DNA of 12,019 bases from a virus, in the IMG/VR virus record IMGVR_UViG_3300029955_000438; one strand, 5' to 3'. This document shows positions 5,771-7,122 of the stretch, in pieces. A program made the position numbers and the translations under genes. Positions within the stretch are counted from its first letter, which is position 1, and each line of letters begins with the position of its first letter. The notes beneath the pieces were generated by a model that did not search any database, had not been told where the DNA came from, and saw only the letters and a list, made by a program, of their open reading frames with translations.

Positions 5771-6595
5771 ATGCTACACTTCATATTCCCGGCTGACCCG
5801 CTGAACCCGAAAAAGCTGGATGAGTATTTCGCCCCGCAGGCGTCCGCTCTGAAACGCTACCCCAACTCTGTGTACTCCACTGAGGCAGGTGGAATCTGGG
5901 GAGATTGCAGTAACAACCCGAGAGGGTTCGATGGTGCTGTGGTAGTGTATCGTGGCTGGATGCTAAACTCGGCTGAATACCGCGCTATGACAGACAAGGT
6001 GAAGACGATGGGTGGGCGGCTGTTTACTCGCCCGGAGGACTACATTCGCTGTCACCACCTGCCGTGCTGGTACCCGCTGATAGCGGGGCTGACTCCTGAT
6101 ACTGTAGTTTTTCCTGAGTTCTGTTTCACCCCGCAGTTCAACCTCGTGCTGGCTCTACAGGCATTGGGGTGGGAGCACTACTTTATCAAGGACTATGTGA
6201 AGTCCCTGAAGCTGGAGAACCATCCATCGGTGACGACACCGCAAGATGTCCTCACACTGCTTGATGCCATGACAAAATTCCGTGGCAAGTTGGAGGGCGG
6301 CATCTGTGTTCGCCGGGTGGAGAAACTGACCGACGAACGCCGCTTCTTCGTTATCCAAGGACGGACTATCGGGGTTTCGGGGGAGTGGGCAAAGGTGGAC
6401 ACCAACGGTATTTACGACCTGCTTGAGACTGTTCGTACCCGCGTGGCGTCTCCCTTCTACTCCGTGGACATCGCGATTCGCGACGACGGCCAGCCTCGGG
6501 TGGTAGAAATTGGAGACGGTCAAGTATCAGACTTGGTTGGTAACTGGACCCCGGAGGCGTTTGCCAACATTTGGGCCGGAGTGTACCATGATTAA
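5771..6595 (+). CDS. ATP-grasp superfamily enzyme (probable peptide/amino-acid ligase; R2K/RimK-like clade is a guess)
   Basis: The C-terminal half carries the ATP-grasp catalytic-core pattern …RRFFVIQGRTIGVSGEWAKVDTNG…FYSVDIAIRDDGQPRVVEIGDGQVSDLVGN… (E-x-G/N metal-binding loop). Start ATG 5771 follows GGAGGTAGAAAGGGTGG. The upstream in-frame extension to GTG 5687 has rare codons and AT-rich third positions, so I reject it. The stop overlaps the next ORF. Confidence 0.7.
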   Translation: MLHFIFPADPLNPKKLDEYFAPQASALKRYPNSVYSTEAGGIWGDCSNNPRGFDGAVVVYRGWMLNSAEYRAMTDKVKTMGGRLFTRPEDYIRCHHLPCWYPLIAGLTPDTVVFPEFCFTPQFNLVLALQALGWEHYFIKDYVKSLKLENHPSVTTPQDVLTLLDAMTKFRGKLEGGICVRRVEKLTDERRFFVIQGRTIGVSGEWAKVDTNGIYDLLETVRTRVASPFYSVDIAIRDDGQPRVVEIGDGQVSDLVGNWTPEAFANIWAGVYHD

Positions 6596-6707
6596 ATTTT
6601 GGGACAGGTTGCTCAAGTCGGAAGTCGATATAGTTCGTACCTTGATAAACCTCACCTTGATTCACGAGGTCGATTTTTACTTGGGAGACGATAGTGAAGA
6701 AGAATAA
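6588..6707 (+). CDS. Micro-ORF (39 aa, MIKFWDRLLKSEVDIVRTLINLTLIHEVDFYLGDDSEEE) bridging the ATP-grasp and Pth2 genes
   Basis: ATG 6588 lies within CCATGATTAA, overlapping the ATP-grasp stop at 6593-6595. Its stop at 6705-6707 overlaps the Pth2 GTG start at 6694. It may be a genuine coupling peptide or only an artefact of the overlap. Confidence 0.3.
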   Translation: MIKFWDRLLKSEVDIVRTLINLTLIHEVDFYLGDDSEEE

Positions 6708-7122
6708 AATTCCGTCCGAAAAACGAATCTATGTTGTAGTGGCCGAGACTGTCTCCACCCCAGAGGGAGAGGTAGTTCAGGTACCGGGGAGAATCGCGGC
6801 TCAGGCTGTGCATGTGGCCAGCCGGATGAAGATGCACCAGATTATAGGGTTGAGTGAGAAGCATCAGTTGGCGAGAGCAGACGAGGCCATCACCACTATC
6901 ATTCTCGGGGCTCGTGACTCGAATGAGTTGCGTCATGTACAGCGGCTGTTGGAGAAGGCGGAGATCGAGCACTACACTTTTGAAGATATCAACCCCGCCG
7001 TTTATGGTGAGGATTGTGGTGCCCCCTGTGAAGTGACAACTGCCTTGGCAACCGTTCCGGTAATGCCGGAAGAGGTGGTGGATATCCTCGACTACCTTCC
7101 TCTGTGGGCACCCCGCTCCTAG
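6694..7122 (+). CDS. pth2: Peptidyl-tRNA hydrolase, Pth2 (archaeal/eukaryotic-type) family
   Basis: RIYVVVAETVSTPEGEVVQVPGRIAAQAVHVASRM matches the Pth2 N-terminal core (human PTRH2 [29 protein letters not shown]). The distal TTALATVPVMPEEVVDILDYLPL matches [22 protein letters not shown]. GTG start with GGGAGA upstream. Confidence 0.7.
   Translation: MKKNKIPSEKRIYVVVAETVSTPEGEVVQVPGRIAAQAVHVASRMKMHQIIGLSEKHQLARADEAITTIILGARDSNELRHVQRLLEKAEIEHYTFEDINPAVYGEDCGAPCEVTTALATVPVMPEEVVDILDYLPLWAPRS

Follow-up and report, generated by a model that had tools for sequence, protein, structure and literature searches.

Overlapping genes for an R2K.3 ATP-grasp ligase and a Pth2-like protein in an uncultured soil phage probably encode two independently acting enzymes

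Do two enzymes act together when their genes are chained by overlapping stop and start codons? The question is raised by a locus in the IMG/VR virus record IMGVR_UViG_3300029955_000438, of which a stretch of 12,019 nt (the window) was analyzed. Three open reading frames (ORFs) on its + strand, at 5771–6595, 6588–6707 and 6694–7122, overlap each other in the way that a first-pass annotation had described. They comprise a gene for an ATP-grasp ligase, a micro-ORF and a gene for a protein resembling the peptidyl-tRNA hydrolase Pth2. That annotation had read the chain as an obligately co-translated module acting on tRNA or ribosome substrates. A different reading, given a probability of roughly 65% here, is that the ATP-grasp and the Pth2-like protein are accessory enzymes that act independently of each other in a large uncultured soil phage. 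Earlier work noted R2K ATP-grasps in jumbo phages, and likewise PTH2 (Iyer et al., 2021, PMC7824862). No description of the pair as a system exists, and the evidence presented here says that it is no system. Each of the two genes adds a new member to a known kind.

The first gene extends from ATG 5771 to TAA 6595 (+) and encodes 274 amino acids (aa), one fewer than the 275 originally counted; the 142 aa given for the third ORF are correct. Its product scores 66.5 bits on the profile PF14243 R2K_3, for which the curated cut-off is 26.3 (E 4e-18). In an alignment of the window protein with 35 homologues (36 sequences), every family-invariant residue is present in the window protein. In particular, K140 and K144 of FxKDYVKSLK, the lysines of the RAGNYA domain that form an R2K signature, are invariant, and the last strand carries an ExGD motif instead of ExN, with E246, G248 and D249 invariant and the window protein reading VVEIGDGQVSD. 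The ExGD motif is the hallmark of R2K.3, a family defined in 2015 (Burroughs, Zhang & Aravind, 2015, PMC4431377). The AlphaFold model of the protein has a predicted local distance difference test (pLDDT) score of 90. Its top Foldseek matches were DcsG, ArgX/LysX, PsnB and RimK, at E about 1e-9, and >500 ATP-grasp structures in the PDB were matched at E ≤ 1e-3. Profile and fold both bear out the assignment of the first ORF to the R2K clade, and the gene encodes a catalytically intact R2K.3 ATP-grasp.

The predicted activity of the protein is that of an ATP-dependent ligase, joining an amino acid or peptide to the carboxylate of a target, probably a protein. The nearest solved structures to the model, RimK, LysX and ArgX, are amino-acid ligases for protein C-termini and illustrate the likely chemistry, the ATP-dependent addition of an amino acid to a protein carboxylate. 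Identity to them is only 11%–17%, however, and these families lack the R2K-specific lysines and the ExGD motif. R2K enzymes have been proposed to ligate an amino acid or peptide onto targets and are predicted to modify translation factors (PMC4431377). With the R2K.3 family (PF14243, PMC4431377) the window protein shares the pre-ATP-grasp domain, the two lysines, the ExGD motif (EIGD, 246–249) and the ATP-grasp fold. The setting differs: the window gene lies in a large phage beside rII and Ku rather than as a solitary bacterial gene, and it has no GNAT, R2K.2 or ARG partner of the kind found in the operons of PMC4431377. The phage-type sequences also differ from other R2K.3 proteins by a short insertion around residues 115–121. 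The 2092 homologues of the window protein are mainly on bacterial chromosomes (Deinococcus, cyanobacteria, Planctomycetota, Verrucomicrobiota), and a protein search with it against 50,697 isolate phage genomes gave no match; a DNA search of these genomes gave none either. Neither the ATP-grasp nor the Pth2-like protein matched a PADLOC defence or anti-defence model or an NCBIfam family. A phage clade of R2K.3 ligases is documented here.

The third gene (GTG 6694 to TAG 7122, +, 142 aa) matches PF01981 PTH2 with 26.0 bits against a cut-off of 23 (E 1e-5). The same profile is matched by 35 of the 45 members of its family, with a best E of 4e-10, and no other family is matched. The AlphaFold model (pLDDT 95) has the Pth2 fold, as had been proposed: the 14 best PDB matches in Foldseek are all Pth2 (E 2e-6 to 1.5e-2), and template-modelling scores against solved Pth2, normalized to the target, are 0.70–0.78. 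Identity to solved canonical Pth2 is 15%–21%. In a profile alignment to solved Pth2 chains, PGR33IAAQ37xxH40 lies over KGKxxAQxxHA (PGRIAAQ over KGKMVAQ) and FED98 over RDAG (FEDIN over RDAGHT). The catalytic lysine of Pth2, which we take to be K18 of the Sulfolobus solfataricus enzyme in the numbering of Fromant et al. (2005), is replaced by Arg33, invariant in all 45 sequences. The catalytic aspartate (D86 of S. solfataricus, in the DAG motif) is retained as invariant D98, and the Gln and His positions are retained as Q37 and H40. The threonine four residues past the aspartate (T90 of S. solfataricus) is not kept, position 102 being Ala or variable, with an invariant Y104 nearby. Because the catalytic lysine has become an invariant arginine and the threonine position is lost, the protein is named Pth2-like, and its predicted hydrolase activity is plausible.

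With archaeo-eukaryotic Pth2 (PF01981; S. solfataricus 1xty, human Bit1 1q7s) the window protein has in common the fold, the AAQxxHA motif and the catalytic aspartate, whereas its subfamily has an extra N-terminal β-hairpin and a conserved C-terminal LDYLPLW motif. Like the jumbo-phage PTH2 genes of Iyer et al. (2021, PMC7824862), the gene belongs to a large phage. A single distant match was found among the 50,697 isolate phage records, in Tunturiibacter phage Tunturi_5, a cultured jumbo phage of 308.7 kb with a host from the Acidobacteriota, where the Pth2-like gene lies beside SbcD. The phage-specific subfamily comprises 73 distinct loci, and its invariant arginine in place of the catalytic lysine is the most noteworthy detail of this work.

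The overlaps that join the three ORFs were examined as a possible device for co-translation. The stop of the ATP-grasp gene and the start of the micro-ORF share 8 nt, ATGATTAA, at 6588–6595, and the GTG of the Pth2-like gene (6694) sits 14 nt inside the micro-ORF. Each of the two downstream starts has a Shine-Dalgarno sequence (SD) at a 6-nt spacing, GGAG (6578–6581) for the micro-ORF and GGGAG (6683–6687) for the Pth2-like gene, and the start sites of the ATP-grasp and Pth2-like genes agree with the N-termini of their homologues. Both junctions show what is expected of translational coupling, a start that overlaps or lies near the upstream stop and has an SD. Coupled overlapping genes with ATGA or ATGxxTAA junctions are found in dense phage operons, and the 8-nt and 14-nt overlaps of the window, with the SD inside the upstream gene, are like these; nothing about them is distinctive, and the coupling may run via a 39-codon orphan ORF. 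rIIA and rIIB in the same window are joined by the identical 8-nt overlap geometry (ATGTCTAA), and 28 of the 42 called gene junctions in a related locus (L001) overlap. For these reasons the overlaps are not special; they are ordinary translational coupling in a dense genome and no dedicated co-translation device. The claim of obligate co-translation is not supported, overlapping junctions being the default in these genomes. A search for SD sequestration or other RNA structure around the Pth2-like start and the junctions found that the sequence folds no better than shuffled versions (z 0.3), and the window contains no Rfam RNA family and no tRNA gene. In dense phage genomes, tight start/stop overlaps are no evidence of shared function.

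The micro-ORF (ATG 6588 to TAA 6707, +, 39 aa) spans the 98-nt spacer between both enzyme genes. Among 5.8 billion and 1.84 billion proteins in two databases its product matches only itself; two further matches are tandem-repeat proteins matched by chance, and the N-terminal part has no homologue in either database. The GC content of the 98 nt unique to the micro-ORF (6596–6693) is 0.43, whereas the means are 0.56 for coding and 0.48 for intergenic sequence, and only 0.55% of the 98-nt windows within the genes of the window are as low. The last ten codons of the micro-ORF, FYLGDDSEEE and the stop, are found again in L202, the locus with the nearest relative of the Pth2-like gene (76%), where they close an upstream ORF that is longer and unrelated in the rest of its sequence. 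These codons are conserved because they overlap the ribosome-binding site (RBS) and start of the Pth2-like gene, which are read in another frame. L202 and the window share DNA similarity from 6674, 20 nt ahead of the GTG, as far as the stop codon of the Pth2-like gene. The Pth2 gene and its RBS behave like a cassette of their own. Its left edge is formed by the conserved translation-initiation region TTTTTACTTGGGAGACGATA (6674–6693, +), which includes the SD. As a conserved third component the micro-ORF can be discounted; it may not be a real gene, and is either spurious, spanning the spacer, or a lineage-specific relay ORF. In the nearest relative of the ATP-grasp (77% identity), the ATP-grasp gene is followed by overlapping genes of 101 and 82 aa instead of Pth2. 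The micro-ORF might be a deletion scar fusing these two genes; its last 10 codons, constrained by the Pth2 RBS and start, are all that matches an upstream gene, and that in L202.

To follow the gene pair across relatives, Pth2-like loci were taken from viral contigs (16), metagenomes (80) and exact-protein look-ups, and ATP-grasp loci from viral contigs (18) and bacterial genomes (80). All six-frame ORFs were scanned with hidden Markov models of the two families, each made from its alignment, and with the proteins of the window itself. Single-protein pattern scans of the viral contigs gave nothing, and alignment-based scans were required. The Pth2-like loci collapse to 73 distinct clusters, 22 of them flanked on each side by at least about 5 kb. 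Of these 22 well-flanked loci, nine have a full ATP-grasp gene within 7 kb, 12 lack the ATP-grasp and one retains a remnant of it. Both genes are also present in four loci with shorter flanks (L044, L050, L054 and L077). The remnant, in L046, is a 47-aa N-terminal stump of an R2K.3 ATP-grasp (5624–5767, MEMQMRFMFPADALNPRKIDEYFKPQAEVLAPEGY...), followed by unrelated small genes and, about 0.4 kb 3′ of the stump, by an intact Pth2-like gene with its major-vault-protein (MVP)-like neighbor. When whole viral contigs having either gene were considered, 4 of 30 had both. In bacteria, the 8 kb around R2K.3 genes contained a Pth2-like gene at 0 of 80 loci, and no recurrent partner was found, no family occurring >3 times among 129 flanking ORFs.

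Where both genes are present, they occur in two arrangements. In type A, found in eight lineages (L001, L008, L009, L012, L044, L048, L071 and L108), the order is rIIA-rIIB-Ku ... Pth2 ... p195 ... ATP-grasp, with 2.1–6.6 kb between the pair. In type B, the order is rIIA-rIIB-Ku ... ATP-grasp ... Pth2-MVP, and the gap is 0.1 kb in the window, 0.35 kb in L077, 0.9 kb in L050, 1.0 kb in L054 and 1.4 kb in L203, with intervening genes that vary by locus. Near-abutment is confined to the window lineage, the 12 others having the genes 0.35–6.6 kb apart in either order. The pair nearly adjoins in the window lineage because the small genes that separate it in relatives are absent. Conserved adjacency, by which a gene-pair module might be recognized, was not found across diverged relatives, nor was correlated presence and absence. 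A neighbor-joining tree of the ATP-grasps, which are short proteins, splits cleanly by type A versus type B, which suggests roughly one rearrangement. The ATP-grasp gene has conserved flanks within each type: in type A, p195 and a DNA-ligase-like gene; in type B, Pth2 and an unrelated gene on the upstream side. The co-localization is real and, since the phylogeny splits by arrangement type, appears to be explained by inherited synteny, in the order rIIA-rIIB-Ku ... Pth2-MVP ... p195 ... ATP-grasp, with roughly one rearrangement. Conservation of the pair, which the first-pass annotation had wished to see checked, is borne out as co-occurrence in 12 other lineages within 7 kb, so that the refuting case named in that annotation, a pair found together in no related genome, does not apply, and is not borne out as conserved adjacency.

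Several small features were seen beside the pair in these relatives. A small conserved gene (MVPAxNF...LTDxQFREFVRNTLPIV...) lies between ATP-grasp and Pth2 in several type B relatives (L203, 11625–11990; L050, 2050–2229; L046, 6049–6216) and is absent from the window. The ARAGORN calls for L054 include a tRNA-Asp at 7970–8043 whose anticodon, AUC, is unusual; it lies about 110 nt 5′ of the ATP-grasp gene. Calls in L014 and L021 are tRNA-like with aberrant anticodon loops, and tRNA calls in the relatives are sporadic or odd.

If the two enzymes act independently, the locus may work as follows. Both genes lie within a conserved block 3′ of rIIA-rIIB-Ku and would be transcribed on one polycistronic message, p81-ATP-grasp-(micro-ORF)-Pth2-MVP-like, from a weak hairpin after Ku to a strong terminator after the MVP-like gene. 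The ATP-grasp would ligate its amino acid or peptide onto the target carboxylate, probably that of a protein. The Pth2-like protein would hydrolyze the ester bond of peptidyl- or N-blocked aminoacyl-tRNA, thereby recycling tRNA in the infected cell. Such a role, recycling of peptidyl- and N-blocked aminoacyl-tRNA and rescue of jammed ribosomes, has been proposed for jumbo-phage PTH2 (PMC7824862); the window protein would fill it with Arg for the catalytic Lys. Ribosomes would be handed along by the start/stop overlaps with their good SDs, and the micro-ORF, if translated, would be at most a relay bringing ribosomes to the Pth2 start. The coupling would then be a product of dense gene packing and not the sign of a shared biochemical pathway.

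Some observations weigh against independence or limit how firmly it can be held. The two genes share a strand and lie within 7 kb of each other in the window and in 12 other lineages, 13 distinct lineages in total, and in type B Pth2 is always ≤1.5 kb 3′ of the ATP-grasp, though the ATP-grasps are only about 45%–48% identical; such persistent proximity could reflect selection for co-expression. The roles given to both families in phages are predicted ones, and the transcription-unit boundaries are deduced from hairpins and motifs only. The strongest form of the alternative is the obligate two-enzyme module itself, directed at tRNA or ribosome substrates, for instance in rescue or repair after host toxins, with the micro-ORF as third component. 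The chained ORFs with good SDs, the predicted links of both families to translation (PMC4431377, PMC7824862) and the 12 other lineages with both genes within 7 kb speak for it. It is nevertheless very improbable: near-adjacency is a feature of the window lineage only, the genes differ in order and spacing among relatives, either gene often occurs alone, L046 keeps an intact Pth2 by an ATP-grasp remnant, the pair was found at 0 of 80 bacterial loci, the orphan micro-ORF resembles intergenic DNA in composition, and the overlaps are generic. The jointly acting module of the first-pass annotation is disfavored on these grounds. A real module would offer the first functional handle on R2K.3 ligases and phage Pth2. 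In a related proposal the R2K.3 ligase and the Arg-variant Pth2-like protein cooperate, or act as writer and eraser, on tRNA or the translation apparatus of the host and are kept within a few kilobases, together with the MVP-like gene, in an rII-proximal island of large soil phages, the window being its most compact, co-translated form; we regard this as improbable.

A weaker form of cooperation, in which the enzymes do not depend on each other and sit in a conserved rII-proximal island that takes over or protects host translation, with proximity serving co-regulation, is unlikely. Proximity survives deep divergence in two arrangement types, the two genes of the window share a strand with no strong terminator between them, and predictions in the literature have R2K enzymes acting on translation factors as modifiers and PTH2 of phages freeing jammed ribosomes. 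Conserved backbone synteny explains the proximity equally well, however, and the ATP-grasp has other neighbors that are just as conserved, p195 and the DNA-ligase-like gene in type A and the unrelated upstream gene in type B. Ku, rII and DNA ligase are neighbors with functions outside translation, and the window is devoid of tRNA genes and RNA families. A separate doubt, compatible with either view of the pairing, concerns the Pth2-like protein alone, which might be no peptidyl-tRNA hydrolase at all but a subfamily with another ester or amide substrate, or a noncatalytic binder of tRNA or ribosomes. The invariant R33 at the canonical lysine site, the Ala or variable residue at the Thr90 equivalent, the low identity to solved Pth2 and a PF01981 score barely over the cut-off all point that way. 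Yet the fold and the Asp, Gln and His positions are kept, 35 of 45 members match PF01981 and no other family, and arginine is able to provide the same positive charge as lysine. That the protein is no peptidyl-tRNA hydrolase is rather unlikely. Independent action of the two enzymes remains the preferred reading.

The proposed message includes two further genes. The MVP-like gene (7253–9712, +, 819 aa) matches PF11978 MVP_shoulder (E 3e-26) and PF17795, with Vault repeats, and has no PHROG match. It lies directly 3′ of the Pth2-like gene in all type B relatives (L010/L047, L046, L050, L054, L084 and L203), and for this reason the Pth2-MVP adjacency is better conserved than that of ATP-grasp and Pth2. 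The only report of viral MVPs to date is a preprint of 2023 that deals with gut phages (10.1101/2023.11.10.566534). On the other side, directly 5′ of the ATP-grasp gene, lies an 81-aa gene (p81, 5472–5717, +; phrog_33577, E 3e-13). A strong terminator is absent between the two, and the 81-aa gene is probably on the same transcript. The weak hairpin after Ku (5354–5382, +; −18.4 kcal/mol, z −1.75, poor T-run) is a possible leaky terminator. The hairpin after the MVP-like gene (9730–9762, +) is strong, with a 10-bp GC stem (−21.8 kcal/mol, z −3.97) followed by UUUUUCU, and the MVP-like gene probably ends the same transcription unit. Another strong GC-rich hairpin with a U-run follows rIIB (3918–3947, +, z about −4). 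The hairpins after rIIB and the MVP-like gene were not reported by the consensus terminator scanner and were folded separately.

Upstream of rIIA, of Ku and of the 241-aa gene there are copies of CCCGGTATACTGTAA, and each copy contains TATACT, a −10 hexamer as in sigma-70-like promoters. The motif CCCGGTATACTGT(A/G)A occurs three times (215–229, 4325–4339 and 10060–10074, all +), directly 5′ of the same genes, against 0.1 copies expected by chance. At least two of these copies are inside TAGACA-N17/18-TATACT sigma-70-like promoters, and the sites are probably early promoters. No copy precedes the ATP-grasp or the Pth2-like gene.

The rest of the window is likewise filled by a same-strand (+) block of phage genes. 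rIIA (230–2656) and rIIB (2649–3881) are followed by a 106-aa gene (+) and the Ku-like gene (4360–5346, +). Downstream of the MVP-like gene come the genes for a 78-aa membrane protein and a 241-aa protein (both +) and a gene for a 195-aa phage non-structural protein of the A1S_2505 family (10827–11414, +), which matches NCBIfam NF049995 (E 1e-35) without a Pfam match. In type A relatives a homologue of the 195-aa gene lies a few hundred bases to ∼2.3 kb 5′ of the ATP-grasp. At the left end of the window, positions 1–173 (+) hold the 3′ part of a gene with a UvrB/UvrC (UVR) motif at the C-terminus of its product. At the right end, positions 11720–12019 (+) hold the 5′ part of a gene cut by the window end, whose N-terminus contains ...GKVPLLGSDGKLDIS...SGSYNDLNNKPTLG..., which presumably resembles a phage tail-fibre-type motif.

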